In this document: positions 1 to 54,707 of the stretch, piece after piece
Layout: each line of letters opens with the position of its first letter
Numbering within the stretch: the stretch's first letter is position 1
Notes under the pieces: model-generated
Databases searched by the model: none
What the model was told of the DNA's origin: nothing
Seen by the model: the letters and a program-made list of their open reading frames with translations, nothing else
Made by a program: the position numbers and the translations under genes
IMG/VR virus record: IMGVR_UViG_3300037755_000322
Span: 1 to 56,393 of that record
Length of the DNA: 56,393 bases
Reading direction: 5' to 3' (one strand)
Source: a virus
Lineage: Duplodnaviria; Caudoviricetes

Positions 1-127
1 CAAGGAAAAGGCTGCCGCTGTCGAAGGCCCGAAGGGGCCATTGTTGGGCGAGCACAGCCAGTCATGGATGGGCATCTGATGGCAAAACGCACGCGCATTC
101 GCCGCGACGAACGTCCGGAACTGTCCG
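1..127. repeat. Terminal direct repeat, identical to 56267-56393 (circular assembly overlap)
   Basis: The first 127 nt match the last 127 nt. The repeat cuts through the TerL stop/portal start junction, so the contig closes into a ~56,266 bp circle. Confidence 0.95.
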
Positions 128-2376: not shown

Positions 2377-4547
2377 GCGACGTATTTTACCAGCCGCAGG
2401 ACTTGATCGACCCGGACGTCATCCCGGCGACCGAAACTTCGCCGTTGCGGCTGATCATCCGGCCACAGGCGGACCGAGTGCCGGTAAACCCGCTGGCGCC
2501 GCTGGTGGTCGCTGACGCCGGTCGACGTCCGGCGCAGGTCGAACCGCCCTCCAACGTATTGGCGCAACGCGGCATCATCGACAAGTTGCTAGGGTTGACC
2601 GGCCCGCGTTATCAGACCTGGCCGGAAAAAATGACGCGATCGGGCGTAGCGCTGCCGCACGACGTTATGGCCGGCCCGGTGGCGGTCACCGACCCTTATG
2701 GGCGCGTCGTAGAGAGCGCCCCGGCGTTCGATTTGCGGACCGGTCACACGTCCGATCCGCTGACGCAGCGCGTCATGGACTTGAGCGGACTGATCATGGG
2801 CGGAGGCATTCCGGCGGCGGCACGCGGGGCGCTCGGAGCGGCGGGGGGCAAAATAATTCAACCAGAAATTACTCCCGGTCCTTTCTATTCGGCGGTCGAG
2901 CACGCGCTGACGAACGCGCCGCAGGAACGCATGACGCCGCAGCAATGGACGGGCTGGCTCAAGAATCAGCCCGGCGTCAAGGCAGAAGAACTGTCGTGGT
3001 TAGGGTTGGACGATCCGGCGTCACTACCGGCCGGTCCGAAAGGCCAAGTTGACAAGGCCGCGCTGCTTGAGCACGCGCAAGGCCACGGGCCGCAGATAAA
3101 GGAAGTGGAAAAGGGGGGTAGCGCTTATGACGAAGGCGCGGCCCACGAAATTGCGTACAAAAAAGCGGATGAAGAAGCACAAGCACAAGGTATTGACGAC
3201 GAAGAGTGGGTCCAAAGCCGGGCTTACGATATTTTTGATGAAATGCCGATTGCGGAAGGAGGAACTAAGTTTTCCGAGTACCAGCTGCCCGGCGGCGACA
3301 ATTATCGCGAACTGTTGCTGACGATGCCATTTAAAAAAGCTGAGTCGGGTAAAGCAATTGCTGATGAAGTGCCTGAATGGCAGCGTCAATACATGCGTCC
3401 TGAGGCTTGGGCAGAAGACCCGAATAATGTCTATCGTTCTTCTCATTGGGACGAGCCCAACGTTATTGTTCATATGCGCATGAACGACCGCGACGTACCC
3501 AGCATCGGCAAGAGCCTGCACCTGGAGGAAGTGCAGAGCGACTGGCACCAGCAAGGGAGGAAACAAGGATATAAATCAAACGATTTAAAAAAAGACTTTA
3601 AGGAAAGATTTGGTAGAGAACCAAGCGCTAACGAACTAAAAGAATTTTCGGAGGAATGGGTAAATCAAGGCGGAACGGTTCCCGACGCTCCATTCAAATC
3701 CACCTGGGCCGATCTCGCCTTGAAGCGCGCCATTGCCAAGGCTGCGCGCGAGGGCTACGACGCTATTTCATGGACGCCGGGTGAGCAGCAGGCGGCGAGG
3801 TACGACCTGAGCAAACAAGTAGATAAAATTAAGTATAACCCAGACGCCAACAAGTTGGAAGTTTATAAAGATGGCGCGCTAGTGTTAGGGCGGGTTGCCG
3901 GTCGAGCAAATTTGCCAGACTTCATTGGCAAAGAAGCAGCAGACCGAATTTTAAATAATCCTACACGGAAAAATGAAAAAACCGGTTTCAACGAATTAGA
4001 AGGAGAAGGGCTAAAGGTCGGCGGCGAGGGCATGAAGCGTTTTTATGACAAGATGCTGGTCGACAAGGCCAACGCGCTGGCCAAGAAGTTCGGTGGTAAG
4101 GTGGAGTGGAAGGACTTACCTAGCTCTACCGGTCATGAAGTAGTGTCGCAGCCGCACGGCGAGCTTACTATCGGCGAGCCTCAGCTGGCGTCGACGGTGC
4201 CGGCGAGCAGGCGCGACGCCATGGTGGGCGTGTATGAAAACGGCGTGTTCAAGGACAACTATGAAAAGAGCGCCGGGCTGGTCGAGAGACTGAGCAAGAC
4301 CATGGTGAGCGGCCCGGACGGCATCCGTTATTTTGACACGCCGCAGGAAGCGCAAGCTTTCATCGATTCGAAGCGCGTCAAGGTGCCGGTGTTGCGTCTA
4401 ACGCCCGAAATGAAAAACACCGCCGTGCGCAAGGGTATGCCGCTGTTCAGTTCCGGGTTGTCGTTTCAGTTCATTCCGGTAGACCACGATCCTTTCAAGT
4501 TGGACCCGCAATTTGAACAAGCCTACAGCCAGGGGAGCGCAACCTGA
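2373..4547 (+). CDS. Large conserved phage protein (large polyvalent protein-like domain), function unknown
   Basis: 724 aa ORF with ATGA coupling to the portal. Blocks FYSAVE, GVKAEEL, LPGGDNYRELLL, SHWDEPN, EEVQSDWHQ, GYDAISWTPG resemble those of phage polyvalent proteins (from recall). Confidence 0.6.
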   Translation: MSDVFYQPQDLIDPDVIPATETSPLRLIIRPQADRVPVNPLAPLVVADAGRRPAQVEPPSNVLAQRGIIDKLLGLTGPRYQTWPEKMTRSGVALPHDVMAGPVAVTDPYGRVVESAPAFDLRTGHTSDPLTQRVMDLSGLIMGGGIPAAARGALGAAGGKIIQPEITPGPFYSAVEHALTNAPQERMTPQQWTGWLKNQPGVKAEELSWLGLDDPASLPAGPKGQVDKAALLEHAQGHGPQIKEVEKGGSAYDEGAAHEIAYKKADEEAQAQGIDDEEWVQSRAYDIFDEMPIAEGGTKFSEYQLPGGDNYRELLLTMPFKKAESGKAIADEVPEWQRQYMRPEAWAEDPNNVYRSSHWDEPNVIVHMRMNDRDVPSIGKSLHLEEVQSDWHQQGRKQGYKSNDLKKDFKERFGREPSANELKEFSEEWVNQGGTVPDAPFKSTWADLALKRAIAKAAREGYDAISWTPGEQQAARYDLSKQVDKIKYNPDANKLEVYKDGALVLGRVAGRANLPDFIGKEAADRILNNPTRKNEKTGFNELEGEGLKVGGEGMKRFYDKMLVDKANALAKKFGGKVEWKDLPSSTGHEVVSQPHGELTIGEPQLASTVPASRRDAMVGVYENGVFKDNYEKSAGLVERLSKTMVSGPDGIRYFDTPQEAQAFIDSKRVKVPVLRLTPEMKNTAVRKGMPLFSSGLSFQFIPVDHDPFKLDPQFEQAYSQGSAT

Positions 4548-6358: not shown

Positions 6359-7570
6359 ATGGCCAACAACCTTCTGACGATCAGTATGATCACCCGCGAG
6401 GCGATCGAACTGTTCGTCAACTCGAACATGTTCATTCGCAACATCGACAAGCAGTACGACGCGGAATTCGGCAAGGCCAACGCCAAGATCGGCTCGCAAC
6501 TCCGCATCCGGCTGCCCAACGACTACACCGTTCGCCACGGCCCGGCGATCTCGCTGCAGGATACGTCCGAACAGCAGACCGTCCTCACCATGGCGACGCA
6601 GGACGGCGTCGACGTCAACTTTACGTCGGCTGACCTGCTGCTGTCGCTCGACGACTTCTCGGAGCGCATCTTGCTGCCGATGATGAACAACCTGGCCGGC
6701 GACGTGGCCTCGACCATTATGGGCAACAGCGCCGAGGCGATCGCCAACGTGTCGGCGAACCTCGACGGCAACGGCGCGGTGCTCAACCCCGATTCCGGCA
6801 CTTATCTGGACGCTCAGGCGACGCTGGCTATCAATTCGGCCCCGATGGTCAACCATAAGATCATCAACGACCCGCGCCAGGAAGCCCGCGTCGTGCAGTC
6901 ACTGTCCGGCCTGCTCAACCCGTCCTCGGCCATCAGCGACCAGTACTACGAAGGCACGATGTACAAGGCGCTCGGTGCGACCTGGTTCTCGGACCAGACC
7001 GTCATCAAACACACCAATGGTTCGATGGTGTCGACGACCGTTAACGGTGCCGATCAGACCGGCACCGCTTTGACCGTCGCCGCAATCGTCGGCACGGTCG
7101 AAGTGGGCGATATTCAAACCATTGCCGGCGTTAACGCCGTTAACCGCGTCACCAAGCAGGACACGGGCGAACTGCGGCAATTCGTCGTCACCACCGCGAT
7201 GGTAGCCGGCGACGTGACGATGAACGTCTACCCGTCGATCATTCCGGCGGCGGCGGACGGTTCATCGGTGCAGTTCCAGACCGTCACCGCGTCGCCGGCC
7301 AACGGAGCGACGATCACTCCGTTCTTCGTGCCGTCGTCGGTCTACCGCAAGTCGTTCCGCTACGCGCCGCAGATGGTGACAATGGCGACCGGCGACTTGC
7401 CGTTGCCGCCGAACAAGGTCACCGCTCGTCACAAGTACGACAACGTGTCGATGCGCATGGTGACCGATTATCTGATCGGCACTGACCAGTCCGTCACTCG
7501 TCTCGACGTACTGTTCGGATCGCTCGTCGTTCGCGGCGAGTGGGGCTGTATCGTTCCCGGCGCGATCTGA
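6359..7570 (+). CDS. Major capsid protein, P22 gp5-like
   Basis: MANNLLTISMITREA, KIGSQLRIRLPNDY, TIAGVNAVN and C-terminal RLDVLFG are typical of P22 coat-family proteins. GGAG RBS. Confidence 0.92.
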   Translation: MANNLLTISMITREAIELFVNSNMFIRNIDKQYDAEFGKANAKIGSQLRIRLPNDYTVRHGPAISLQDTSEQQTVLTMATQDGVDVNFTSADLLLSLDDFSERILLPMMNNLAGDVASTIMGNSAEAIANVSANLDGNGAVLNPDSGTYLDAQATLAINSAPMVNHKIINDPRQEARVVQSLSGLLNPSSAISDQYYEGTMYKALGATWFSDQTVIKHTNGSMVSTTVNGADQTGTALTVAAIVGTVEVGDIQTIAGVNAVNRVTKQDTGELRQFVVTTAMVAGDVTMNVYPSIIPAAADGSSVQFQTVTASPANGATITPFFVPSSVYRKSFRYAPQMVTMATGDLPLPPNKVTARHKYDNVSMRMVTDYLIGTDQSVTRLDVLFGSLVVRGEWGCIVPGAI

Positions 7571-22438: not shown

Positions 22439-23071
22439 CTAAACACCGTTTCCTCCTTCTTCACGATGTGCTTTGATTGCCGGCAACATCACCGTCTGCC
22501 ACAGCGCCTGCAGTTCCTGTTGCGTCTTCGGCAGTTCCATCCAGGCCGAGTACAATCTGGCCTCGGCCGACGGAATGCGCGGCGCAATGACGCCGTTACC
22601 CATGCGCTGCTCGCCGATCAAGAACAACAAGGCGTCGAGCCGGTCGGCAACTTTGATGATGCGCCATGCTTCATCGCATTGACGCAATTTGGCCATGTTG
22701 AATGACGGGGTGTTAAGTTCGCCGCAATCGGTGACCGCGTCTATTTCGGCCACGATACCCGGCAGCCGCTGCTGCATCTGAACGTCGACATAATCGGCGG
22801 CTCGTTGTTCGTCCAGAATTTCATCCTTGACCGGGCTGACGATGTCGCCCGTGATCGTCTCGTCCAAATCGTGCGTCAAAGCCAAAAACAGCAACAACGC
22901 GTAGGAGCCGCCCCAGCCTACGACCTTAGCTACCGATCGAGCGTACATCGCGACGTAATATGAATGGTTGGCGACGGTGTCGCGCGTCAGGGTCCATACC
23001 ACCGACCAACGCGGTACTACCGACGCGGTACGAAGTTCAGGTGGGAATAGCTGAATGAACTTGCTGGTCAT
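22439..23071 (-). CDS. datZ: HD-domain nucleotide hydrolase, DatZ/YfbR-like (putative dATPase)
   Basis: RW..., VANHSY, ALTHDLDE..TGDI.SP.K, IKVADRLDA; clustered with purZ. Confidence 0.75.
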   Translation of the reverse strand: MTSKFIQLFPPELRTASVVPRWSVVWTLTRDTVANHSYYVAMYARSVAKVVGWGGSYALLLFLALTHDLDETITGDIVSPVKDEILDEQRAADYVDVQMQQRLPGIVAEIDAVTDCGELNTPSFNMAKLRQCDEAWRIIKVADRLDALLFLIGEQRMGNGVIAPRIPSAEARLYSAWMELPKTQQELQALWQTVMLPAIKAHREEGGNGV

Positions 23072-23421
23072 TTCGTTTCCTGCGCGTGGCGGTTCTTGTC
23101 CTGGTCGATCATTGCGAGACGATCGTCAAGAATCATTGCATAATTCGCAATGTCTTTTAATTCAGTGCGCGCTTCAGCGACGTTGAAAAAATCGTCCGCT
23201 ATCTTAAATTCTTCAAGTTCGAGCACCAGCAACCGGACCAGCGCCTCGATCGGTTGCTCGCGCCAGTGGGTCTTTTTGCCGTCGTGCTTTCGCAGTTTCA
23301 ACTCCATCGCTTCAGCAAAGGCGCGGACGGCGGGGCGAAGTTCCGTTTGTTTTAGCAACTCGATTTCTTTCTTGAATTGTCCATATTTTTCACAGCAGGG
23401 CATTCCTACATCATAGATCAT
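23068..23421 (-). CDS. MazG-like all-alpha NTP pyrophosphatase (MazZ candidate)
   Basis: ELEEF...ELKDIANYAMIL acidic helix pair typical of the MazG fold; adjacent to datZ-like gene. Confidence 0.6.
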   Translation of the reverse strand: MIYDVGMPCCEKYGQFKKEIELLKQTELRPAVRAFAEAMELKLRKHDGKKTHWREQPIEALVRLLVLELEEFKIADDFFNVAEARTELKDIANYAMILDDRLAMIDQDKNRHAQETK

Positions 23422-23735
23422 TTTCCTTCCTCCACCTTTATGGCCTCGTCGATCAGCGTTGCCAGCAGCGATGACGGAGCCGGCGCCAGCTTATCCCGCA
23501 ATTCGCGCACCGAATAGCCGTGCTGCAACAGCAGCGACAGACAGACGCAGGCGTCCATCACTAGCGCCCGCACGTCAACGCCGTCCTTGAACGACGAGCA
23601 GAACAATTCGCGCACTTGATGCCGGTCGTCAAGCCCGAAAGTGGCAATGACATGTAATTGACCGTCGGCAGCGGTCACGTGCGTCAACTTGGACGTGACG
23701 CTCAGCCGGCGGGACGGAAGCGATACGCGGTTCAT
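23418..23735 (-). CDS. Stand-alone TSCPD-like domain protein (class II RNR C-terminal-like)
   Basis: LPSRR..T, ELF, SLLLQHG...EL pattern of NrdJ C-terminal domains. Confidence 0.65.
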   Translation of the reverse strand: MNRVSLPSRRLSVTSKLTHVTAADGQLHVIATFGLDDRHQVRELFCSSFKDGVDVRALVMDACVCLSLLLQHGYSVRELRDKLAPAPSSLLATLIDEAIKVEEGK

Positions 23736-23737
23736 TA

Positions 23738-23911
23738 TCAATATCCCGCTTCATGTAATGACTCGTTATATCGCTGTGTTTCTAACTGTTCCATTTTACT
23801 TTTTACCAACATTAGACCAGGACGACTATAATCAACAAACGTAAATGGCTTCTCCAAGTATTCGTCCACGAACGCCATCAAGTCGTGCCAATTTCGTTCA
23901 TAAATAGTCAT
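23738..23911 (-). CDS. Small hypothetical protein (57 aa, AT-rich)
   Basis: ATGA overlap with the purZ stop; fills the gap. Confidence 0.5.
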   Translation of the reverse strand: MTIYERNWHDLMAFVDEYLEKPFTFVDYSRPGLMLVKSKMEQLETQRYNESLHEAGY

Positions 23912-25017
23912 CTTTTTAATCCTATGTATTGTCCCGTCACGACGTCGTCCTTCAGTTCCGCAAACACGTCGTCGGTCGAGGGCCCGTAGACGTACAGCAT
24001 GGCCGGCGGCGCCATGCCGAGATCGACCGCCGCCAGCTTGATTTCCTTGTCAATCGTCTTCTTGTAGGCATACTCGATGTCGGGATAGTCACAGAAGGTG
24101 AGACACACGACGTCGGGCCGCGTGAGCGCCATCGCTTCCCGCATCTGCTGAACCGAGAACGTGAACACGCGCCGGATGCGCTTGGTGACGGTCGTCATTT
24201 CGGGCGCGACTTTAAGTTGGTTCCAGCTGATCTCGCGCTGGTCTGGGTAATGCGACCCGGAATGGCCGAGTTCGCGGCCGGCCTCGGTTATGTTACCCAC
24301 TCTGATCGGATAAGTGCGCAGCACCAACACCGACGCGTTGTAGAACGACGGATGAATGCCGGCGTCGGCCATCGCTTGCGACACTGTACAGTTGCGCGAC
24401 GTGACGTGCGGATAGAACCGCGAATCGACCGATAGGCTGACACCCTGTGGAATTTCGACCAGCACCGACCGTCCAGCGCGCATCGCCTCGTTGAGATCAA
24501 GCCGTTCAGTGAAGCGCTGCAGGAACGGGTGGTCCTTGGCAAGATAGGCGGAACGCAGAATTTTGCGCGACAGCGCATGGCCGACGCCCTTGCGGGTCGA
24601 CGCTATCATGGTCTGAGCAGAATTTACATCACCCTCGGCCGCGCGGTCGGCGTCGTTGATGACGGCGGCGTTGGGATGAATGAACAGTTCGGGAATGTTG
24701 AATTCATTCATTTCACGTTCGAGTACAACGGGGTCGATGATCGAACCGGCATTCAGGTAGACGACCGGCAACAGACCATACTGAGCCGCAATCAGCACTG
24801 ACGTCGGCAGGTGGTAGGCAACGCGGGTGATGCCACCGTGCACCGAAGTGTGACCCGACTGCGCGCCGTTGTTGACGGTGACGACGTCAAACATGCGGCC
24901 TTGTTCACACAGCCGCCGCGTCAGATAGGCGGCAGCGGCGCCCTTGCCAGCCGACCCCCATTGACCGTCTAGAATGAACGACGCCTTGCCGGCGCAGCAG
25001 AATGGGGTCAGGAGCAT
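23908..25017 (-). CDS. purZ: PurZ-family 2-amino-deoxyadenylosuccinate synthase (PurA paralog)
   Basis: DGQWGSAGKG (Ser where PurA has the catalytic Asp of GDEGKG), GHT, QG.SLS, YPHVTSR, RTYPIRV, TTVTKRIRRV, TFCD. Confidence 0.88.
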   Translation of the reverse strand: MLLTPFCCAGKASFILDGQWGSAGKGAAAAYLTRRLCEQGRMFDVVTVNNGAQSGHTSVHGGITRVAYHLPTSVLIAAQYGLLPVVYLNAGSIIDPVVLEREMNEFNIPELFIHPNAAVINDADRAAEGDVNSAQTMIASTRKGVGHALSRKILRSAYLAKDHPFLQRFTERLDLNEAMRAGRSVLVEIPQGVSLSVDSRFYPHVTSRNCTVSQAMADAGIHPSFYNASVLVLRTYPIRVGNITEAGRELGHSGSHYPDQREISWNQLKVAPEMTTVTKRIRRVFTFSVQQMREAMALTRPDVVCLTFCDYPDIEYAYKKTIDKEIKLAAVDLGMAPPAMLYVYGPSTDDVFAELKDDVVTGQYIGLKR

Positions 25018-25427
25018 GCTTTTTCTCCGAGTTGAGCATAGCCGGCAATGTCTTTCCACGAATCCTTAGTATTGTGGCCGCCGCTTACGATACGCGCGAT
25101 CTTGAGGCCAATTTCGTCCAGCGCCAGCGCCTGTTTAGGCGACAAATTCGACCAGTGAGGCTTCATCGAGCGCAGCAGGTCGCGATATTGCAGCGCGAAG
25201 GCGGCGTTGGCGCTGAAATCACCATGGGTAGTACCACGTACGACATGCGGATAAAGACGACCGAGAGCAGGAACAAGTACATGGGCAGACACGTCGTCCA
25301 ACGACCACTTAGCCTGCTCTTCAGTAAGAAAAGGCACCCCCGTCACACACGGAATTATACCGTAACTGGCGTGTAAGGATTGCCATTCACGTTCGAGCAT
25401 GGCCTGTGTCAGTAAATAATTCGTCAT
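25008..25427 (-). CDS. DUF6378-like protein
   Basis: RG.THGDF...LKIARI..G....DSWKDIAGYA motif. Confidence 0.75.
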   Translation of the reverse strand: MTNYLLTQAMLEREWQSLHASYGIIPCVTGVPFLTEEQAKWSLDDVSAHVLVPALGRLYPHVVRGTTHGDFSANAAFALQYRDLLRSMKPHWSNLSPKQALALDEIGLKIARIVSGGHNTKDSWKDIAGYAQLGEKACS

Positions 25428-26118: not shown

Positions 26119-26324
26119 ATAAAGGTGTCTCCGTCCATTTCATATACATCGTACCACTGGTCGCAGTCTTCACACTTGAACGCCATGCCGTCAAGAACCT
26201 TGCATTCCTCGACCGACATTTCGTTAAATATTTCTATGTCCTCGAAAGCACTCCCCTCGCACGACGCCACCAGACGGTCGGCCAACGCTCGAATTTCAGC
26301 GTAGCGTGCGGGAGACATGGTCAT
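26097..26324 (-). CDS. Small Zn-finger protein
   Basis: CEDC...CKRC; ATGA overlap with the polymerase stop. Confidence 0.6.
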   Translation of the reverse strand: MTMSPARYAEIRALADRLVASCEGSAFEDIEIFNEMSVEECKVLDGMAFKCEDCDQWYDVYEMDGDTFICKRCAS

Positions 26325-28189
26325 TTTTCTTCTCCGTAAGTCGCGACGCTCCAGTTTGGGCCTTCGCCCTCGTCGACCCGCATCGGCAGGTCCAGTTTGA
26401 TCACGGCGCTGTCCGACGAGAAGTCCTCCATGATCCGTTTGCACTCAGCATAGACGGCGCGCGACCGGCCGTCAAGTTGAAACTGCGACGACAGTGCGTC
26501 ATGACAATTGAGCAGCAATTCGACGCCTGACTTTGTGCCGCCCTCCGACTGCAGGAATTCGTCGACTTCGACCATCTTTAGCTTCAAGATGTCGGCATTG
26601 CCAGTCTGCAACAACCGATTGAACCCAACATAATCGCGGTCAGGGTCGTCAAGCCGGCAGCGCCGTCCCAACAACGAAATGAGCCAACCGCGCTCGCGGA
26701 AACGTCGCGCTACTTTCTTCTGAAAGGGTTTCAGTTCGGGCACCGTGCGGAAGTATTTGGCGAGCGCTCCTTCGGCCTCGGCCTCGGTCATTTTGTACTT
26801 GTTCACCAGTGCCCTTTTTCCGCCGCCGGTAATGACGGTCTGGTTGACGCGCTTGGCCCAGGTGTTACGATAGTGCTTCTGATCGGCTTTGGGCATCTGG
26901 TCCCAGTCGGCGCGCGACCCTTTCGCCACCGCGGTGTGGCTGTCGGCTGCCGGATTATTGCGATAATCGTCGAGAAACACACGGGCGCGGGTGTAGTAGG
27001 CCATCAGCCGAGGCTCGATCTGACTGTAGTCGCGTTCGCCCCAGGCGCCGTAATCCGGCACAAATATCGATCGGTACAACGCTCCGAGTTCCTCGTCGTG
27101 CTTGGGCACCTGCTGCATGTTAGGGTCGTTGCTGCTTAGCCGTCCCGTCACGGTGCCGAAATCGTCGGTCCGCAACTGGTTGAATGTCGTATGCACGCGG
27201 CCATTCCACAGGTGGCGTTCTTTCAACGGCATACAGAAAGTAGCGTTGAGATTCTCCCACTTGCGCAGCTTGATAATTTTCTTGCCGGCGTCGTACCGCT
27301 CCAGGTAGTCGGACGTAAATGATGGCGACCCGTTCGGCCGGGTGCGCGACGGCGGCGTGCGCGGCCAGTCGGTGTGACCGTTCTTCTCCATCCAAGCCTG
27401 TACGTCGAGAGGCGACCGGGCGTTGAATCCGGACGGAAATTCGTTGTGTAATTGCTCGACGTCGCGGTCGATTTTGTCGATCAACCATTCGAGCCGCTCT
27501 TCGTCGACCTTGACGCCCCTTGTCATCATGCGCGCCAGTACCGGGATCAGACGACTTTCTATGTCGTGAACGAGGCCGAGTTCCTGGTTCTGAATGTTCA
27601 CCGTTTGGGCATCACGCAGCTGCCAGGTCGTGGTGCCGTCGCCGCGGGCGTAGTCGACGCCGACGCGGTCGTTGCCCGCCAACCGCCAGTAATGCCCCAT
27701 AATGTTTTTGTTGTTGGGTTCATTCAGGACGTTCGCCATATAGGCATACAGTTCGGCGCCCTTCTTGGCCTGGACGCCGTGACGATCGGCACAGGCCGCC
27801 AGCGAATACTTGCCGACATATTCGTCGAGCAGCGGTGCGTTAATCATGGTGTCTTCGAACCGAGGCTGCAATTTGAAGCCGACCCGGCTCATTAACCGCA
27901 GGTCGAATGCCAGATTGTGGCCGAAACATAGAGTACCGGCTTCGTCCAGTTTTGTCACCAGTTCCCTTTCGCCCGGCGCCAGCTTGCCGTCCCAGCCCTC
28001 GGGCGACGTCAGGCCGGCGCGGCCACCGACGTTGGCATTGCCGGCATGGCGGAACGGCACATAGTAGCTGTCGCGCGGGTCGGCGCTGAACGCCAGCACG
28101 TAGCCGACGATCGCGTTCTTCTTCCAATCAAGCCCCGACGTCTCAACGTCCAGGCAACGCACCTTTTCGTGCGGCAGCCGGTTCAACAC
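26321..28189 (-). CDS. Family A DNA polymerase with 3'-5' exonuclease (DpoZ candidate); start uncertain
   Basis: Exo DVETSG, HNLAFD, YARGD; pol TGRLSS.DPNMQQ, DYSQIE, GRR, N.LLQ..AD, HD. AGGA just before GTG/TTG at 28189/28186. Confidence 0.9.
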   Translation of the reverse strand: MLNRLPHEKVRCLDVETSGLDWKKNAIVGYVLAFSADPRDSYYVPFRHAGNANVGGRAGLTSPEGWDGKLAPGERELVTKLDEAGTLCFGHNLAFDLRLMSRVGFKLQPRFEDTMINAPLLDEYVGKYSLAACADRHGVQAKKGAELYAYMANVLNEPNNKNIMGHYWRLAGNDRVGVDYARGDGTTTWQLRDAQTVNIQNQELGLVHDIESRLIPVLARMMTRGVKVDEERLEWLIDKIDRDVEQLHNEFPSGFNARSPLDVQAWMEKNGHTDWPRTPPSRTRPNGSPSFTSDYLERYDAGKKIIKLRKWENLNATFCMPLKERHLWNGRVHTTFNQLRTDDFGTVTGRLSSNDPNMQQVPKHDEELGALYRSIFVPDYGAWGERDYSQIEPRLMAYYTRARVFLDDYRNNPAADSHTAVAKGSRADWDQMPKADQKHYRNTWAKRVNQTVITGGGKRALVNKYKMTEAEAEGALAKYFRTVPELKPFQKKVARRFRERGWLISLLGRRCRLDDPDRDYVGFNRLLQTGNADILKLKMVEVDEFLQSEGGTKSGVELLLNCHDALSSQFQLDGRSRAVYAECKRIMEDFSSDSAVIKLDLPMRVDEGEGPNWSVATYGEEK

Positions 28190-28451
28190 TTCCTGGAGCG
28201 ATCGGTCCGCGTCGGCGCCCGGCGCCGCGCGTCTCGTTCCAATGGTTGACCGCCTGGCTTGGACTGTCGAACTTTCGTCCCGCAAAATTGTAACGGACAC
28301 GCGTCCTTTTGCCGGCTTCGATCTCGTGGATGATGGCGACGTCATCGTGCCCCTCGGCCTTGAATACCTTGATATGGACCGCAGTAGTGCGGTCCTCGAA
28401 CGCAAGCGCCCAGGTCAGAGCGCGAAACTGGCGGAGAGAAAGCACCGTCAA
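28143..28451 (-). CDS. Hypothetical protein overlapping the polymerase 5' end
   Basis: TTGA coupling to the upstream gene; plausible N-terminal two thirds. Confidence 0.5.
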   Translation of the reverse strand: MTVLSLRQFRALTWALAFEDRTTAVHIKVFKAEGHDDVAIIHEIEAGKRTRVRYNFAGRKFDSPSQAVNHWNETRGAGRRRGPIAPGSVEPAAARKGALPGR

Positions 28452-43470: not shown

Positions 43471-43763
43471 TCGAGCCCCGTCCGACGGGCATCCGTCCTA
43501 CTTGTCCGGATGCCCCTTGTACGAGTTGGCTAAGCTTAAGGCCCGTCGGACGGGCATCTGTCCTACCTGTAGTACTTGTCACACTTTCTCGCGCGTACGC
43601 GTAAGATATGTCCGGGCCATCCCTTTTTTCTTTTTTTCTAAAGAAGAAGAAAAAAAGTAGGACAAGTAGGACAAGTAGGACGGAGGCCCGAAGGACGGGG
43701 CTCGAACTTAGCCCACCTGTAGGAATTCATGTGGACAAGTAGGACAGAGGCCCGTCGGACGGG
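43471..43763. repeat. Four ~30-37 bp iteron-like units in inverted arrangement around an A/T tract (candidate origin)
   Basis: 43471-43507 is the reverse complement of 43669-43705 with 3 mismatches; further copies at 43541-43570 and 43733-43763; GTAGGACAA tandem at 43657-43680. Confidence 0.85.
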
Positions 43764-44046
43764 TATCGAGAAATATATTTAATCTGTAAGTGTTCAGCGG
43801 CTGAACGTGGTGGTATTCGAGTGTAGGAAAGAGAGAAAGGGCCTTGACGGGGGACGCGGCGCGTGGTGACGTACCGGCGTTCAGGAACGCCTTCACCCGG
43901 CGTGCCGCGGCATGGAAAATTCGTAGAGACTAACCAGTTCCGCGCGTGCGCGTGTTGTTAAGGACGCTTGACATGCTTGATTTGTCGCGCCGATCGTTTA
44001 TTGCTGGGGTCGATAGAACATCCTCGGGGCCGGTAGGCCGGACCAT

Positions 44047-44568
44047 ATGAGTACGTTCTTCGTCGTTCACACTCAGCCAAATTGCGAACAGCGCGCTCAT
44101 GATCACTTGTCATCGCAGCAGTGTGACGTCTACTATCCCCGCATTCAGGTCGACGTTCGTCATGCAAGACGCACCGTGCGCTCATGCCGCCCGTTTCTTC
44201 CCCGCTATATGTTTGTGGCCGACGACGGGCGCGGCGTGTCGTTCATCAAGCGGTCATATGGCGTGAACGACGTGGTGCGCCAGGGCCTGGAGCCGGCTCG
44301 CGTGGCGCAACGTGTCGTCAACCGCATTCTGGCGCGTGAGGACGACGACGGCTTCGTTCAGCTGGACGATATTCTGACTGACAACGCGTTGCGGCGCGGC
44401 TTTCGTTGTGGCGACGCGGTGCGCGTCAACGAGGTCCAGTTCGGTACGCCGATCGACGCGATTTTTCGCCGGATGCGTGGCGAGACGCGGGCGCTGGTAT
44501 TTTTGTGCATGCTCGGCCGGCAGATTGCCAGCGAAGTACCGGTGCGGCTGTTGGAGCGCGCGGCATGA
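44047..44568 (+). CDS. NusG/RfaH-like transcription antitermination factor
   Basis: FVVHTQPNCE.RA, PFLPRYMFV, GV..VV NGN domain; KOW-like GDAVRV and MLGRQ; first gene of the late arm. Confidence 0.85.
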   Translation: MSTFFVVHTQPNCEQRAHDHLSSQQCDVYYPRIQVDVRHARRTVRSCRPFLPRYMFVADDGRGVSFIKRSYGVNDVVRQGLEPARVAQRVVNRILAREDDDGFVQLDDILTDNALRRGFRCGDAVRVNEVQFGTPIDAIFRRMRGETRALVFLCMLGRQIASEVPVRLLERAA

Positions 44569-45005
44569 TTGAAGCGTCACGACGTTCGTTCATCGGGGGC
44601 GCGCTGGCGTTGTGCGCGGCGCCTGCCGTGGTGCGAGCGTCGTCGTTGATGCCAGTGCGAAGTTTGGTTGTTTCGCCTTCGGCTAGTAACTCGTTGTTGA
44701 CGATAGATATGATTACGCAGGAAGCCATTAGGTTGTTTAGAAGTTCAAATGCCTTCTTGGCGCATATGGATCGTCGGCGGGACGATATGTTTGAGGGACA
44801 ACCAGCTGACGGAGTAGCTGGATTGCTTGCAGCGGGTGTAGTAGCTACAAAAGTTGAAAGCACGCGGCGCAATTTACCGGCGCTGATTGGTGGGTTGGCT
44901 GCGACGACGAAACAATCAGCGCCCCCTATTTCTGTCAGGTCAATTTGTCGTATTCGGCTTCCGAACGATTACGCCGTGCGCAACACTCACAGGCTGGTAA
45001 CATGA
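44565..45005 (+). CDS. Tat-signal protein containing a diverged copy of the coat protein N-terminus
   Basis: SRRSFIGG..AAPAVVRA signal; NSLLTIDMITQEAIRLF..SNAF and RIRLPNDYAVR match coat NNLLTISMITREAIELF..SNMF and RIRLPNDYTVR; ATGA couplings at both ends. Confidence 0.8.
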   Translation: MIEASRRSFIGGALALCAAPAVVRASSLMPVRSLVVSPSASNSLLTIDMITQEAIRLFRSSNAFLAHMDRRRDDMFEGQPADGVAGLLAAGVVATKVESTRRNLPALIGGLAATTKQSAPPISVRSICRIRLPNDYAVRNTHRLVT

Positions 45006-45577
45006 CCGGCCCTGCTGACAAGCCCCGGTGCAAGAAGTTGAAGCCACCCGACGGGCCGGATTATGAGGCGCAGCGCCGGCGTTATGACGCCTATCGCGCG
45101 TCGTTACCACCCAACGTCTCGGCCAGTGATACTGATAACCCGGCCATTAAATATGGTGCCAAGAAGACCGAAGCCACGATTGCTATGGTCATAAGCTGGC
45201 TTGAAAAGGGTTACAGCAAAGGTTTCGCTTGTGACAAGGCCGGCATTTCGGTGGTGTCGTGGGACAAGTGGAAATCGGATGACGAAGTCATCAGAGAACG
45301 CGCTCATGCCGCGGTCGAGCGCGGTACTGATTTGATCGAGGACGAGGCTCGTCGTCGCGCCGTCGAGGGCACTGACAAGCCGGTGTTTCAACAGGGCGAG
45401 TGCGTCGGGTTTATTCGTGAATATAGCGACACGTTGATGCAAATGGTGCTCGGCGGCCGGCGCTCGGCTTATCGCAAAACCAGCGTTGAAATGTCCGGGC
45501 CGAACGGTGGCGCCATTCCGCACAAGGTCGAAGTAGAATTCGTCAGTCCAAAAGCCAGCGGCGAGAAACAACGATGA
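45002..45577 (+). CDS. Terminase small subunit
   Basis: HTH (ACDKAGIS...W), EDEARRRAVEG.DKPVF, YSDTL, SGPNGGAI. Confidence 0.85.
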   Translation: MTGPADKPRCKKLKPPDGPDYEAQRRRYDAYRASLPPNVSASDTDNPAIKYGAKKTEATIAMVISWLEKGYSKGFACDKAGISVVSWDKWKSDDEVIRERAHAAVERGTDLIEDEARRRAVEGTDKPVFQQGECVGFIREYSDTLMQMVLGGRRSAYRKTSVEMSGPNGGAIPHKVEVEFVSPKASGEKQR

Positions 45578-45879
45578 TTCACGGCGTGCTCAGTTTAGGG
45601 TCCGTTGCGATAATCGGAGTGCTGACGTTGGCAGCCGGTAAACCGCCGCCCGGCGTCAATCCTCCCTGCAACGCGTCCCACCCCAATCAGCGCACTATCA
45701 TTGATTATACGAGCGGGCCGATGTGCGACGTCGGCGTGTGCGATCCGGTGCTGCGGTGCGGAAGTTCTGTTGAACCGTGTCTATTAATTCCGGCTCCTTC
45801 CTGTATTCAATGTAATCCACGCTCCGCGGTGGCGCGTTGTCTTACTAACGGCGAATTGAACCAGGCCGGGGGAAAATAG
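45574..45879 (+). CDS. Small exported Cys-rich protein (8 Cys)
   Basis: Hydrophobic N-terminus ending TLAA; ATGA coupling. Confidence 0.6.
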   Translation: MIHGVLSLGSVAIIGVLTLAAGKPPPGVNPPCNASHPNQRTIIDYTSGPMCDVGVCDPVLRCGSSVEPCLLIPAPSCIQCNPRSAVARCLTNGELNQAGGK

Positions 45880-46025
45880 AGTGTTCGATTTTTGTCGCCG
45901 CGTCTATAATGATCCGTTTTATTCGTTCTGCGCGTGGATGACGGTTGTCATAGCCGTCGTCACTTGGGGATTTAGCGACACGTGGGGCGGTCATTCTCAA
46001 CTGAAGTCGCCGCAGGAGGTTCGCC

Positions 46026-46199
46026 GTGCACCATAAATATGAAGGGTCGAAGATCGACGAACGGCGCGACCGTCGCGAGGCCAAGAAGCGTGGTATGACG
46101 ACGAAGCAATGGGAGCACAGCGCGGCCGACCGCAAGATGGACCGCGAGGGTCAGCGCAAGCTAGATCAGGCGGCGAAGCACAAGAAACGGCGCCGATGA
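46026..46199 (+). CDS. Small highly charged protein (57 aa)
   Basis: AGGAGG RBS, GTG start; YEGSKIDERRDRREAKKRGM; ATGA coupling to the next gene. Confidence 0.75.
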   Translation: MHHKYEGSKIDERRDRREAKKRGMTTKQWEHSAADRKMDREGQRKLDQAAKHKKRRR

Positions 46200-47254
46200 C
46201 CGGGGTATTTAAAGCATGGCGCTGGGTGTCGGCACAAGACGCTGCGTCCGTGTTGGCGGCACCGGTCGCGTTCCTGATCGCGGTGGCCTGCGTGCCGAGT
46301 TGGGCAGGTATGGCGACGAGCCCGCGCTGGGTACTGGTGGCGTTGTCTGTTTATTTCATCGACTGGTGGTGTCTGCCATTCACCATTTTGTGTCTGTGGA
46401 AACTGGATTTTGACCAGGCGGCGCACTGGACGTTTCTCTGCGGCGCGCTGTGCTGGGGCATGCGGCTCGACGACCGGACGTTGGAGCGAGTAATTACGTG
46501 GTTCGCGGCCGGCGTCGCGGTGTCGAGCGTACTGGCAATCGGTCAGACGTTTTGGGATTGGGCCGTCGTGCCGCAACTGATAAGCCCGGCTGGGCTATTC
46601 CTAAACAAGAATCTGCTGGCCGAAGCTGCGTGTTTCGTTGTTATCGCGGCGCTGATCAGAGGCCAGTGGTGGAGCGTGGCCGTCGCCATGCCGGCGCTGG
46701 TGCTGACATGGGAACGTGCGGCGTGGCTGGGGGCGTTTATGTCATGCTTCGTGCTGGTTCCGATGAAACAGCGCGTCTGGCTGGTGGTCGCTGGCGGCGC
46801 GTTGATTGCAACGTTCTTGTGGACGGGTTTCGATCTCGGAACGTCGACGATGGCGCAACGCGTCCTGATCTGGCGCGACGCCGTCAACAGTCTGACCTGG
46901 CTAGGAAACGGTAGCTATGACCTGTCTGGCGTCACTATTCGCGAGCCCAACCTGCACAACGACTGGCTCCAGTTCGTGTTCGAACTCGGGGTCGCGGGAC
47001 TGGCTGTTAATTGCGTCTTCGCCTGGTGGGCGGTACGGTCGTATCAGTCGATGGTGTTCATGGTTGCAATTATCGTGGTTGGGTCGTTCAGTTTCCCTCT
47101 CCACATGCCGGCAACTGGCTGGTTTATTGCTATTGTTATTGGCAATAGTCTACGGCGCGGCCATGTCGCGGGCCGAGTATCTCTACCACCGCGGCTGGAA
47201 GACCCACAGCTACGCCGATCTGGTGGAAGCCCGTCGGCTGTTTCCCTATCTTAA
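46196..47254 (+). CDS. O-antigen ligase / O-oligosaccharyltransferase-like membrane protein (Wzy_C)
   Basis: Many TM helices; GLFLNKN, T..RAAWL, S...R..IW, G.G, LHNDWLQ..FELG..GL, FSFPLH.P motifs. Confidence 0.82.
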   Translation: MTGVFKAWRWVSAQDAASVLAAPVAFLIAVACVPSWAGMATSPRWVLVALSVYFIDWWCLPFTILCLWKLDFDQAAHWTFLCGALCWGMRLDDRTLERVITWFAAGVAVSSVLAIGQTFWDWAVVPQLISPAGLFLNKNLLAEAACFVVIAALIRGQWWSVAVAMPALVLTWERAAWLGAFMSCFVLVPMKQRVWLVVAGGALIATFLWTGFDLGTSTMAQRVLIWRDAVNSLTWLGNGSYDLSGVTIREPNLHNDWLQFVFELGVAGLAVNCVFAWWAVRSYQSMVFMVAIIVVGSFSFPLHMPATGWFIAIVIGNSLRRGHVAGRVSLPPRLEDPQLRRSGGSPSAVSLS

Positions 47255-51403: not shown

Positions 51404-52227
51404 TGCGTAAAATTGCTATTGTACTTGGCCTGATCGCAGCGCTAGCAGCTAGTACCCATGCGCAGATGGTGCCGGGCGTTTCCGGTTCGATGCTGTTTAG
51501 CGGCGGCAATATCGTGCCCTGTACCGGCGGGACTATTACTGCGTCCGGCGGCAATACGATACATACGTTTTCGTCCAACGGCACGCTGTCATGTACGTCT
51601 CCGTTCACTATAACGGCGCTGGTGGTGGCTGGTGGTGGCGCGTCCGGCGGCGGCGGTTATGCGGGTGGCGGCGGTGGCGGCGGAATGTGCGAATTGCCGT
51701 CAACGCCGCTGGCCTCCGGTAGTTATACTATCGAAGTGGGCATTGGCGGAACGGGTGTTGCTAACAGTTCCGGCAATACTGGCAACGACAGCACGTTTAA
51801 TGGCATCACGGCCAAAGGCGGCGGCGGCGGGGCGGTTTACAACAACAATAACGGTAAAACTGGCGGGTCCGGTGGCGGCGGTTCGTCCAACACTGGCTTG
51901 GGCGCCGCGTCCAATCAAACGACGCCGTCCGGCGGGGCGATTTGTTATGGAAACACTGGTGGAAGTGCGTCCGGTGCAAACGGTGGGGGTGGCGGCGGCG
52001 CAGGCGGCGCAGGCGGCACACCGACAGCCGGGGTAGGCAGGGCTAATTCTATCACCGGGTCCAGTGTCACTTATTCCAAAGGCGGCCTTTCAAATGCTAC
52101 CACCGATCAGGGTGCGTGTGTAAATCCAGGCGATGGTGGGCCAATTGCAGGCGGCAGCGCCGGCGTCGGCACAGGGCATTCCGGCTGTACTGGCCGTGTT
52201 GTCGTCTCTTACCAAACACCATTATGA
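51403..52227 (+). CDS. Exported glycine-rich tail-type protein
   Basis: Signal MRKIAIVLGLIAALAASTHA-Q; IHTFSSNGT, LVVAGGG, GGGGGG, G.VVVSY glycine-rich phage domain; 6 Cys. Confidence 0.82.
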   Translation: MRKIAIVLGLIAALAASTHAQMVPGVSGSMLFSGGNIVPCTGGTITASGGNTIHTFSSNGTLSCTSPFTITALVVAGGGASGGGGYAGGGGGGGMCELPSTPLASGSYTIEVGIGGTGVANSSGNTGNDSTFNGITAKGGGGGAVYNNNNGKTGGSGGGGSSNTGLGAASNQTTPSGGAICYGNTGGSASGANGGGGGGAGGAGGTPTAGVGRANSITGSSVTYSKGGLSNATTDQGACVNPGDGGPIAGGSAGVGTGHSGCTGRVVVSYQTPL

Positions 52228-52291
52228 CAATGAAGTATTTTTCAAGTCATTCGCCCCGAATACGAAGCCGGCCTCGCTTAGGAAATGGGCC

Positions 52292-53161
52292 ATGAGACAC
52301 CCTTACGAAATTCTTCGACCGGAATACGAAAAGTTGCTGTCCACCATGCGCGTACTGCGGCCGGTCGAAGTGAATGCGGCGGCCAATCGTTTAATTCAGA
52401 CGCCGAACATGATGTGCTACAAGGAAGTAGCGGACGCTACCGGCGTGCCAGCGGCGCTGATCGCGGCACTCGACTGGCGAGAAAGCAGCGCCGATCCAAG
52501 CCGGGCGCTCGGTCAGGGCGACCGCTGGGACCGGGTGTCCGTCAACGAGCCGCGCGGCTTAGGGCCGTTCAAGTCACGGGTGGACGCTGCGATCTTTTAC
52601 GTCAGACGCGAACGGTTGAACGACAATTCGGCACCGTGGTCGTGGCCCTACGTGTGCTGGAAAGCGGAAGCTTGGAACGGCTTCGGGCCGCGCAATCATA
52701 GCATTCATACCGGCTATCTGTGGGGCGGCACTAATCATTACCGGCGCGGCAAGTACGTGCGCGACGGCGTGTGGGACCCCAACCACGTCGACCGTCAGTT
52801 GGGCGTCATTCCGGTCATGATGCGGGTTATTTCGCTGACGCAGGCAATTGACCCGGCGTTGGCGTTCGACAAAGCTCCGGCGATTGATCAAGTTGCGCCT
52901 CCGACGCTCGTTCCGGTACCGTCGCCCGTGGGCGTCAGTGGTTCCTCGTCAAAGCATAATGTGAAGTGGCTGCAGGACGCACTCAACAAGGTGCAGCAAG
53001 ACGCGCTCGGACAGCCGTTGCTGATTGACGGGTCGTATGGCCGCCGCACACGGTACGCGGTCCGCACGTTTCAGGCAAATCACGGGCTCAATATTGACGG
53101 TCTGTTCGGGCCGAAGACGGACGCGGCGTTGACTGCCGCCTTACAAGGAGAAGCGTCATGA
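52292..53161 (+). CDS. Endolysin (lysozyme-family domain plus C-terminal peptidoglycan-binding domain)
   Basis: RESS, EAWNGFG, YLWGGT..Y..GKYV.DG, DRQLG; DGSYGRRT..AV..FQ..HGL.IDG.FGPKT. Confidence 0.88.
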   Translation: MRHPYEILRPEYEKLLSTMRVLRPVEVNAAANRLIQTPNMMCYKEVADATGVPAALIAALDWRESSADPSRALGQGDRWDRVSVNEPRGLGPFKSRVDAAIFYVRRERLNDNSAPWSWPYVCWKAEAWNGFGPRNHSIHTGYLWGGTNHYRRGKYVRDGVWDPNHVDRQLGVIPVMMRVISLTQAIDPALAFDKAPAIDQVAPPTLVPVPSPVGVSGSSSKHNVKWLQDALNKVQQDALGQPLLIDGSYGRRTRYAVRTFQANHGLNIDGLFGPKTDAALTAALQGEAS

Positions 53162-54374: not shown

Positions 54375-54707
54375 ATGAACCCGCCGCCACCCGACCCGGA
54401 TTTTCTGACCGGCCTCGGCTTCAAGGCGCAGGACCTGTGCGCTGGTTTGGCGGGCGGCATAGTCAATGTATTCGTATTCAAGCGTTCGAACCCAATTGCC
54501 ATTATTGGGTCGGCGGTGGTCGGAGCGTTGACGGCAAACTATCTAAGTGAAAGCGCGCTCAACTACGTCAGGCTATACATAGACGTAAGTGCTGGCGCAG
54601 TAGCGTTCATCGTTGGGCTATGCGCGATGGCGCTTTGCCAATCGATCGTTGAAAAAGTGTCGAAATGGAAACCGAAATTGTCAAGGACCGACGTTGATGC
54701 TTCTTGA
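54375..54707 (+). CDS. Membrane protein, holin candidate (3 TM)
   Basis: AGLAGG..., GALTANYL, AFIVGLCAM; basic tail. Confidence 0.65.
   Translation: MNPPPPDPDFLTGLGFKAQDLCAGLAGGIVNVFVFKRSNPIAIIGSAVVGALTANYLSESALNYVRLYIDVSAGAVAFIVGLCAMALCQSIVEKVSKWKPKLSRTDVDAS

Follow-up and report, generated by a model that had tools for sequence, protein, structure and literature searches.

The locus and its small gene

The gene described here lies in IMGVR_UViG_3300037755_000322, a complete viral record that is 56,393 bp long and carries direct terminal repeats, the whole of which was analysed and is called the window below. It codes for a small protein of 146 amino acids (aa) and is inserted between a NusG-like gene and the gene for the small terminase subunit, terS (Table 1). 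Specifically, its ATG shares the ATGA at 44565-44568 with the stop codon of the NusG-like gene, its TGA shares the ATGA at 45002-45005 with an in-frame ATG of the terS frame, and a GGAG is found 8 nucleotides (nt) 5′ of its ATG; the coupling to both neighbours that was proposed in a preliminary description of this DNA is thus present at both ends. We regard it as highly probable that the gene is genuine and accessory and that it belongs to a large phage family without a curated entry, in which a near-invariant twin-arginine leader is followed by a short, largely disordered mosaic of pieces of P22-type head proteins.

The gene call of the source record (P0001, 98 aa) begins at M49 (44709) and therefore omits the leader. 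The leader is conserved across the family, and a profile built from 11 family leaders matches 44565-44675 with an expect value (E) of 5.9e-20, which argues for 146 aa, not 98 aa, as the likely true form of the protein. The window has one leader gene. Automatic annotation with such a start would hide the export signal in a family of small proteins.

The twin-arginine leader

The leader of the window protein carries the motif S-R-R-S-F-I at residues 5-10 and ends in V-R-A followed by S-S, in keeping with a c-region that has a basic residue and small residues at -3/-1, and its best 19-residue window on the Kyte-Doolittle (KD) hydropathy scale reaches 1.57. Comparable leaders were found in nearly all of the 156 family members on which the anatomical counts given here are based. 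An RR pair lies inside the first 40 residues in 154/156 members; among these 154 it is preceded by S in 80, followed by G or S in 136 and then by F, L or I in 146. The uncharged stretch after the pair is 16 residues long at the median and is ended by a basic residue in 152/154. The consensus can be written as S-R-R-[GS]-F-[LI], an Ala-rich stretch, AAPAIV, a basic residue, a small residue and SLMPV, the last motif opening a linker in which, in two family alignments (A1 and A2), L28 and M29 are invariant and S27 and P30 nearly so.

Signals for twin-arginine translocation (Tat) are characterized in PMC10924467 by an R-R-x-phi-phi motif, an h-region of low hydrophobicity and a basic c-region for the avoidance of the Sec route, and the family leaders fit that account in motif, weakly hydrophobic h-region and basic c-region. 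Within the leader motif, including SLMPV, every synonymous codon class is used and 61 distinct DNA versions occur; as synonymous codons vary freely, the constraint acts on the peptide and not on a DNA site. Start codons lie 2-12 residues before the RR pair in all 13 of the 13 loci examined. Curated Tat models, which are short and of low sensitivity, matched few of the 50 members scanned (PF10518 at E <= 0.01 in 7, TIGR01409 in 1). In bacterial genomes, the leader profile also matches long open frames at their positions 2-27, which are ordinary Tat-type N-termini, and the nearest named clusters in the ESM Atlas are Tat-signal families, with scores of 0.82-0.88 that serve as a lead only. Among 301 genomes of one bacterial class, the full-length leader was found in none and partial Tat-like matches in 2. 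From its sequence we infer that the leader drives Tat export.

Coat-derived blocks in the window protein

Behind the leader and linker, residues 41-77 and 127-141 are homologous to positions 2-38 and 47-61 of the P22-type coat (PF11651), and both blocks are recognized by a hidden Markov model (HMM) built from 60 related coats. The pairwise comparison with the coat of the window (6359-7570), which had been proposed as a check, was run with BLASTP and gave E = 8e-11 with 35/100 identities and one 41-residue gap. Within the coat gene, the counterparts of the copied blocks lie at 6362-6472 (N-arm) and 6497-6541 (first strand of the E-loop).

In the N-arm block 19/37 residues are identical to the coat as against 9/37 third codon positions, and in the E-loop strand block 10/15 residues are identical. 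Over both shared blocks, 29/52 residues and 15/52 third positions agree, synonymous divergence (dS) is saturated and nonsynonymous divergence (dN) is 0.47. Since residues were kept while third positions were randomised, the likeness to the coat has been retained at the protein level, as the preliminary description had suspected of this fusion of a Tat-type leader with coat-derived sequence; it is an old likeness and not a recent DNA duplication. The codons are indeed more AT-rich than those of the coat: G+C at third codon positions (GC3) is 0.53 in the small gene (0.56 in its N-arm block) and 0.85 in the coat gene (0.88 in codons 1-60), with 0.73 and 0.64 in the flanking NusG-like gene and terS, respectively. 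The codon log-odds of the small gene are negative, yet this frame is the best of the six.

Between the two blocks lies an insert of 49 residues (78-126) that has no match in the coat. It holds the second RR noticed earlier (R101-R102) and two short Ala/Gly-rich stretches and, with a best 19-residue KD window of 1.04, it is not membrane-spanning on that scale. The possibility that the insert is a displaced family C-tail or a second leader is not supported, the C-tail HMM scoring 3 bits, which is not significant. The coat-like RIRLPNDY block is present near the C-terminus, although it is not the very end of the protein as first described, because five more residues follow. An AlphaFold2 (AF2) model shows isolated helices and no domain, with a mean predicted local distance difference test (pLDDT) score of 61.9. 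Pfam PF11651 does not match the small protein, only the two coat segments named above being recognizable, and on sequence grounds the protein is a derivative of PF11651, not a member.

A large and uncurated family

A word-indexed search detected ten short proteins of the same plan as the window protein. When a profile of these ten was run against 1.84 billion representatives, 7123 proteins were obtained at E <= 1e-3, of which 448 reached E <= 1e-10 and 32 reached E <= 1e-30. The best 150 of the 7123 are all 76-275 aa long and leader-bearing, and nearly all of them match from the first profile positions.

No curated family that covers these proteins was found in Pfam, NCBIfam, PHROG or PADLOC (50 members scanned). 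Pfam gave only weak TAT_signal matches (7/50) and the PHROGs only ‘major head protein’ (3/50); NCBIfam gave nothing relevant and PADLOC nothing meaningful, its lone match being to GajA (E 0.0084, 1/50 members). Cluster look-ups for family members returned no names, and no Tat-leader capsid-fragment protein is described in the titles and abstracts searched. Two protein queries detected no family member in 50,697 deposited phage records, a search in which the low-complexity filter of BLAST may hide Ala-rich leaders: tblastn with the window protein matched only the coat of one Pseudomonas phage, and tblastn with another leader protein matched nothing. Likewise, blastn of the locus against cultured phages gave nothing, a scan of genome contigs gave 9 loci that were all coats, and a search for related loci with the single window protein as query gave nothing, alignments being required. 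Full-length P22-type coats have no such leader. A search for leader-bearing coats among longer proteins returned ordinary coats in 8/8 cases, and the idea that some coats carry the leader was rejected, because in five cases the sequence added by tblastn extension turned out to lie out of frame or to be unrelated DNA upstream.

Mosaic anatomy of the family

The coat HMM found coat pieces in 155/156 members. They are drawn from coat positions 1-40 (144 members), 41-85 (126), 87-134 (10) and 356-403 (16), i.e. from the N-arm, the E-loop, the start of the spine helix and the C-terminal strands, and no listed segment in the 156 members maps to positions 135-355. The assignment of regions to domains is approximate, being based on P22 limits given in PMC9965877, on the Pfam match and on a low-confidence AF2 model of the coat (29 sequences, mean pLDDT 48.9). 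That model is a weak guide from which only the order of secondary structure was used (N-terminal helix, hairpin strands, a long helix at 97-126 and C-terminal strands). On this approximate mapping, the copied regions correspond to the N-arm, the F/E-loop and both halves of the P-domain, and the A-domain and insertion domain are never used. At least two separate pieces occur in 34 members, and in 26 of the 34 they are non-collinear with the coat.

Portal pieces were also found, as 18 segments in 17 members (portal HMM, profile positions 11-64 and 326-363). The window protein has none of these, its layout being leader, N-arm, unmatched insert and E-loop strand. In about 15 members (P0042, P0026, P0049, P0117 and others), the N-arm copy runs directly into a portal N-terminal piece (F-A..D..N..Q-W-P). 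At the join, coat and portal have approximately the sequence Y/F-x-D-D-x-x-F-A in common, as if recombination had linked them at this short motif. A relationship between the coat N-arm and the portal N-terminus as such was rejected (hhalign E 0.28); portal matches in N-arm-bearing members rest on the F-A..D..N..Q-W-P piece that follows.

Long forms are distinguished by their C-terminus: in 66/156 members an Ala-rich hydrophobic helix and then RRFW close the protein, and the KD value of the helix is at least 1.6 in 58 of the 66. As an RR pair flanks both hydrophobic segments in these forms, their body is predicted to lie outside the cytoplasm and to face the periplasm. The Atlas model of one long form has a pLDDT of 0.41.

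A different arrangement was observed in the record G003, where a 173-aa leader protein (L098, 1150-1671, - strand) carries coat pieces in coat order (spine 87-117, C-terminal 362-385 in the coat HMM) and resembles a ‘mini-coat’ without the A-domain. Its gene is just upstream of, and overlaps, an open reading frame (ORF) of 231 aa whose sequence, by eye, looks endolysin-like with a peptidoglycan-binding repeat. The second leader gene of this record (L099, 1489-1764) has H-R in place of R-R and no coat piece.

The leader as a portable module

An alignment of the leader only located 160 loci in viral contigs, of which 80 were kept with 5 kb on either side, corresponding to 94 leader ORFs. These ORFs often stand two or three in tandem and their bodies are very diverse; portals and large terminases recur as their neighbours. 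Another gene of the same locus is matched at E <= 1e-3 by 13/94 leader ORFs, compared with 3/160 size-matched control ORFs from the same loci, and 17/93 leader bodies match an open frame of at least 280 aa anywhere in 179 loci. At one locus (L106), a pair of tandem leader genes contains pieces of the head protein and connector of the phage itself, the donors being a 348-aa major head protein (phrog_212), which the P22-type coat search does not detect, and a 498-aa connector (phrog_332). The joining of the leader to fragments of a phage's own head proteins thus recurs in at least one further head-protein lineage.

Tandem arrays with two or three leader genes and unrelated bodies of 89-210 aa are found at L118 (3706-5555), L143 (4612-7045) and L106 (4729-5318), and suggest a multigene family of exported phage proteins. 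At L166 (895-1287), a leader protein has a body that is similar to the product of a 293-aa open frame in a different phage locus, L022 (E 5e-7); the pattern of this body is one that we take to resemble tail-fibre collar domains, and virion proteins besides coat and portal may also be donors.

Placement, selection and origin

The position of the gene varies within the head/packaging block in 13 loci with coat-type members. In the window it stands between the NusG-like gene and terS, and elsewhere it is found between terL and the portal gene (L050), before terL (L007) or after terS (L032). Among ten related large records (nine at least 97% complete by CheckV and one 83%), leader genes occur in two, with two genes each, and the other eight have only the coat.

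Four phages with coats that are 92-94% identical have small proteins that are only 45-65% identical. In these four, the small gene has a dN/dS of 0.19-0.37, compared with 0.03-0.06 in the coat gene and 0.10-0.18 in the scaffold gene, values that are rough because dS is saturated. In a comparison of N-arms, the copies in the small proteins are 52-76% identical where the coat N-arms are 94-100% identical. The gene is accessory, selected and fast-evolving. A search for homologs with the leader-plus-coat fusion, together with their dN/dS, had been put forward as a way of checking the gene; the 7123 proteins and the values of 0.19-0.37 in relatives are its outcome.

The N-arm block of the window protein has an identity of 0.55 with the coat of its own phage, of 0.58-0.61 with those of five of six other phages and of 0.52 with that of the sixth; in L050, by contrast, the small protein tracks its own unusual coat sequence. 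The low GC3 of the window gene and an N-arm no closer to its own coat than to others suggest that this copy arrived by transfer. The preliminary description was therefore right that the protein is coat-derived, and less so in calling it a fragment of the phage's own coat, since the family is old and large and the N-arm block is not closest to that coat.

Possible functions

A possible role, and one that we propose tentatively, is that of a periplasmic mimic of docking surfaces of the head interior, which captures or senses proteins ejected by related superinfecting phages. The leader would route the protein via Tat and so place coat- or portal-like peptides on the periplasmic side, where they would be free in members like the window protein and anchored in the inner membrane in the long forms. 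The exported peptides would act as molecular mimics of the docking surfaces and might capture or sense proteins that are normally docked there in the virion and are ejected into the envelope by superinfecting relatives; in the window, the 724-aa protein encoded at 2373-4547 is taken as the internal virion protein. Such capture or sensing would exclude superinfecting phages, protect against lysis from without or serve as a signal of superinfection. An envelope mimic is favoured because phage proteins that are small, exported, patchily distributed and quick to evolve usually target either other phages as they enter or the timing of lysis. We infer the export, topology, partner and phenotype of the small protein throughout. 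The generalization that tailed phages of several head lineages repeatedly fuse a portable Tat leader, conserved as a peptide, to short copies of their own coat and portal docking surfaces, thereby exporting self-mimics into the envelope for an as yet undescribed, kin-specific form of exclusion or superinfection sensing, appears rather doubtful at present. A point against the proposed role is that exclusion of the prophage type does not apply here: the window phage encodes its own polymerase, primase and helicases, no integrase was found among the window ORFs scanned, and the phage looks virulent.

A number of observations weigh against a periplasmic mimic. The match of the window protein to Pfam TAT_signal (PF10518; E 0.0033, 17.8 bits) is under the 22.7 cut-off, and the protein has neither the RRFW tail nor a C-terminal anchor, its best KD window past residue 60 being 1.04. 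In the DNA of 179 loci, 76/93 leader bodies show no detectable head-protein similarity, so mimicry may not be a family-wide principle. The placement in the head/packaging block and the overlap coupling point to late and high expression together with the head proteins, which would suit an assembly role or a co-expressed decoy better than it suits classical early exclusion genes. In four distinct relatives, the gene is found between scaffold and coat and starts at the scaffold stop. Finally, the residues of P22 that bind the scaffold (PMC9965877) have their counterpart region among the conserved N-arm residues T-R-E, and the scaffold is cytoplasmic.

These last two points also speak for a modulator of head assembly on the cytoplasmic side, a reading that we consider somewhat unlikely, in which the copies bind the scaffold C-terminal helix or coat subunits and the leader keeps whatever complex results at the membrane or at the Tat translocon. 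Such a protein could tether or nucleate procapsids, or titrate the scaffold, and the tether and inhibitor of the preliminary description are both covered by it. The copied coat regions are the scaffold-binding face of P22, which comprises N-arm residues D14, E15 and E18 and P-domain residue R101 (PMC9965877). T51 and E53 of the small protein are nearly invariant in A1, as are I50, T51 and R52 in A2; scaffold C-termini retain an invariant W and R (W281 and R285 in an alignment of 8 relatives); and the L050 protein follows its own coat, as noted above. The scaffolding protein, with its basic C-terminal helix, is a candidate partner of any N-arm mimic; a complex prediction for scaffold residues 195-300 with small protein residues 38-146, run without controls, scored 0.00 and speaks neither for nor against this pairing. 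However, an assembly modulator is at odds with a gene that is missing from 8/10 related large records and whose dN/dS is 4-8 times that of the coat, with the RR flanks that predict a periplasmic body in the long forms, and with a shuffled block order that would be odd for part of an ordered assembly.

Alternatively, the function may reside in the leader and in the exported location, the bodies being raw material acquired from neighbouring head genes by recombination. The coat likeness would then reflect ancestry and not mimicry, and the protein would be one of many small exported envelope effectors. We hold this to be improbable to a similar extent, although the leader is much more conserved than any body, at the peptide level, and the many bodies without head similarity are what it would lead one to expect. 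The tandem arrays with unrelated bodies (L118, L143, L106) and the usual location of leader genes beside terminase and portal genes, their likely donors, point the same way. Raw material, however, would hardly account for an N-arm copy in the window that retains 19/37 residues over randomised third positions, for the conservation of the same coat residues across more than 150 representatives at 50% identity, or for pieces that come from four particular coat regions, with none listed from 135-355.

The first idea of the preliminary description was a decoy against host immunity that senses capsids or portals. In this scenario the peptides occupy the sensors, and the leader may carry a captured sensor to the membrane or remove it from the cytoplasm. 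Capsid and portal proteins trigger CapRel, Lit and Avs4, and the short linear capsid peptide Gol suffices for Lit. Coat and portal are indeed the donor proteins, co-expression with them is what a decoy needs, and the gene is fast-evolving and sporadic. Nevertheless, a peptide that copies a trigger epitope should switch such sensors on and not block them, as Gol peptide alone activates Lit; the export signal takes the decoy out of the compartment where the known sensors act; and PADLOC gave no meaningful match, the GajA hit mentioned above included. We therefore think a decoy improbable. More generally, the decoy, tether and inhibitor roles first suggested are all cytoplasmic, whereas the leader and the RRFW helix (66/156) predict an extracytoplasmic coat-like body. 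That the gene is a non-functional recombination scar, or a young ORF staying open in a GC-rich genome, is very unlikely: the atypical codon usage (GC3 0.53, negative log-odds even in the best of six frames), the leader left out by the source gene caller and the unmatched 49-residue insert would fit, but dN/dS is below 1 in relatives, amino acids were kept over randomised third positions, start codons lie 2-12 residues before RR in 13/13 loci, the leader persists through synonymous change, and the gene has overlap couplings at both ends and a GGAG before its ATG.

Relation to known systems

Other members of the family also copy the spine-helix start and the C-terminal strands of the P22-type coat, from which the small protein differs by the absence of the A-domain, the insertion domain and a predicted fold, by the shuffling of the pieces and by the leader in front. 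With the Tat signal peptides of PMC10924467, it shares R-R-x-phi-phi, a weakly hydrophobic h-region and a basic c-region, and it remains under the Pfam score. The same source covers Tat-inserted tail-anchored proteins, with which the long forms, and not the window protein, share a leader and a C-terminal hydrophobic helix; known examples are cofactor-containing host enzymes, in contrast to the passenger of this family, a mosaic of phage peptides that is short and disordered. Compared with Tat signals in general, the family leader is conserved well past the usual requirements (AAPAIV, SLMPV), and its export is predicted.

Several envelope proteins of superinfection exclusion, namely Sim of P1, Sp and Imm of T4 and gp15 of HK97, are small, accessory and fast-evolving, reside in the periplasm or inner membrane and act on phage entry. 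They resemble the role proposed for the small protein, and no sequence relation to it was found, none having been sought; furthermore, they are expressed early or from prophages, whereas the phage of the small gene looks virulent and has the gene among its late head and packaging genes. To our knowledge, no superinfection exclusion protein is built from head-protein fragments or uses Tat. Morons, i.e. independently acquired accessory genes in phage late operons, are similar in their accessory status, their variable placement among structural and packaging genes and a composition unlike that of their neighbours. The small gene differs from them in being overlap-coupled to both neighbours and in having no promoter- or terminator-like site of its own in a consensus scan, in which the only + strand sites fell inside the NusG-like gene. 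We rate the architecture as new, since no described system was found that joins an export leader to shuffled fragments of a phage's own head proteins.

If the role of a periplasmic mimic is correct, (i) phages would build new envelope effectors modularly, by joining a standard export leader to peptides copied from their own structural proteins, (ii) such genes would form a new class of phage-phage conflict system and (iii) the combination of a leader with self-derived peptides would provide a sequence rule to find them in metagenomes. The family also marks the autonomous interaction peptides of the P22-type coat, namely the N-arm, the E-loop strand, the spine-helix start and the C-terminal strands. 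Even without a function, it has thousands of members that are absent from the curated libraries searched, and it is a clear natural case of order-independent shuffling of short fragments under purifying selection.

Neighbouring genes and other features of the window

The features of the small gene and of the associated genes are listed in Table 1.

Table 1. Coordinates in the window of the small gene, its parts and related head and packaging genes
Feature	Position	Strand	Basis and remarks
Portal protein	64-2376	+	phrog_156, E 7e-98
Scaffolding protein, basic C-terminal helix	5300-6202	+	phrog_8865
Major coat protein, P22 type	6359-7570	+	Pfam P22_CoatProtein PF11651, E 4.2e-29; near full-length Pfam match
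NusG-like gene, first of the + strand block	44047-44568	+	Pfam NusG, E 6.6e-13; phrog_6386, transcription antiterminator
Leader-plus-coat-fragment gene	44565-45005	+	146 aa, stop included; ORF, sequence and family membership
Twin-arginine leader, residues 1-25	44565-44639	+	RR at 6-7; Ala/Gly-rich weakly hydrophobic stretch; basic residue, Ala, then Ser-Ser
Linker, residues 26-40	44640-44684	+	Opens with the family-wide SLMPV motif; family alignments A1 and A2
N-arm copy, residues 41-77	44685-44795	+	Coat HMM positions 2-38, independent E-value (i-E) 3e-14; BLASTP
Insert without coat match, residues 78-126	44796-44942	+	49 residues; gap in BLASTP
Copy of first E-loop strand (RIRLPNDY block), residues 127-141	44943-44987	+	Coat HMM positions 47-61, i-E 8e-3
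Small terminase subunit, terS	45002-45577	+	phrog_4044, E 4.2e-23; probable start 45002

The lysis cassette is apart from the small gene and consists of an endolysin-like gene (52133-53161) and a holin-like gene (54375-54707). Directly 3′ of terS (45574-47254, + strand), two genes were observed: the first codes for a cysteine-rich protein of 101 aa that has a hydrophobic segment at its N-terminus, the second for a 381-aa multi-pass protein with a weak match to Wzy_C (O-antigen ligase; E 0.0058, below the cut-off). With these two, the leader gene would belong to a small cluster of envelope-directed genes.

On the other side, the gap at 43471-43769 contains four copies of an element of 37-42 nt, two in each orientation and 86-92% matching, which sit between the leftward replication genes and the rightward block of the NusG-like and packaging genes. 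At this boundary between early and late genes, the repeats may serve as operators or as promoters specific to the phage.

Further away, adjacent genes at 22439-25059 (- strand) match phrog_1211 (adenylosuccinate-synthetase-like, E 8.6e-56) and phrog_7076 (dATP triphosphohydrolase, E 8.8e-16), and a DNA polymerase gene of family-A type is found nearby at 26321-28405. The pairing of phrog_1211 with phrog_7076 is presumably that of PurZ and DatZ, by which phages with 2-aminoadenine in place of adenine are recognized.

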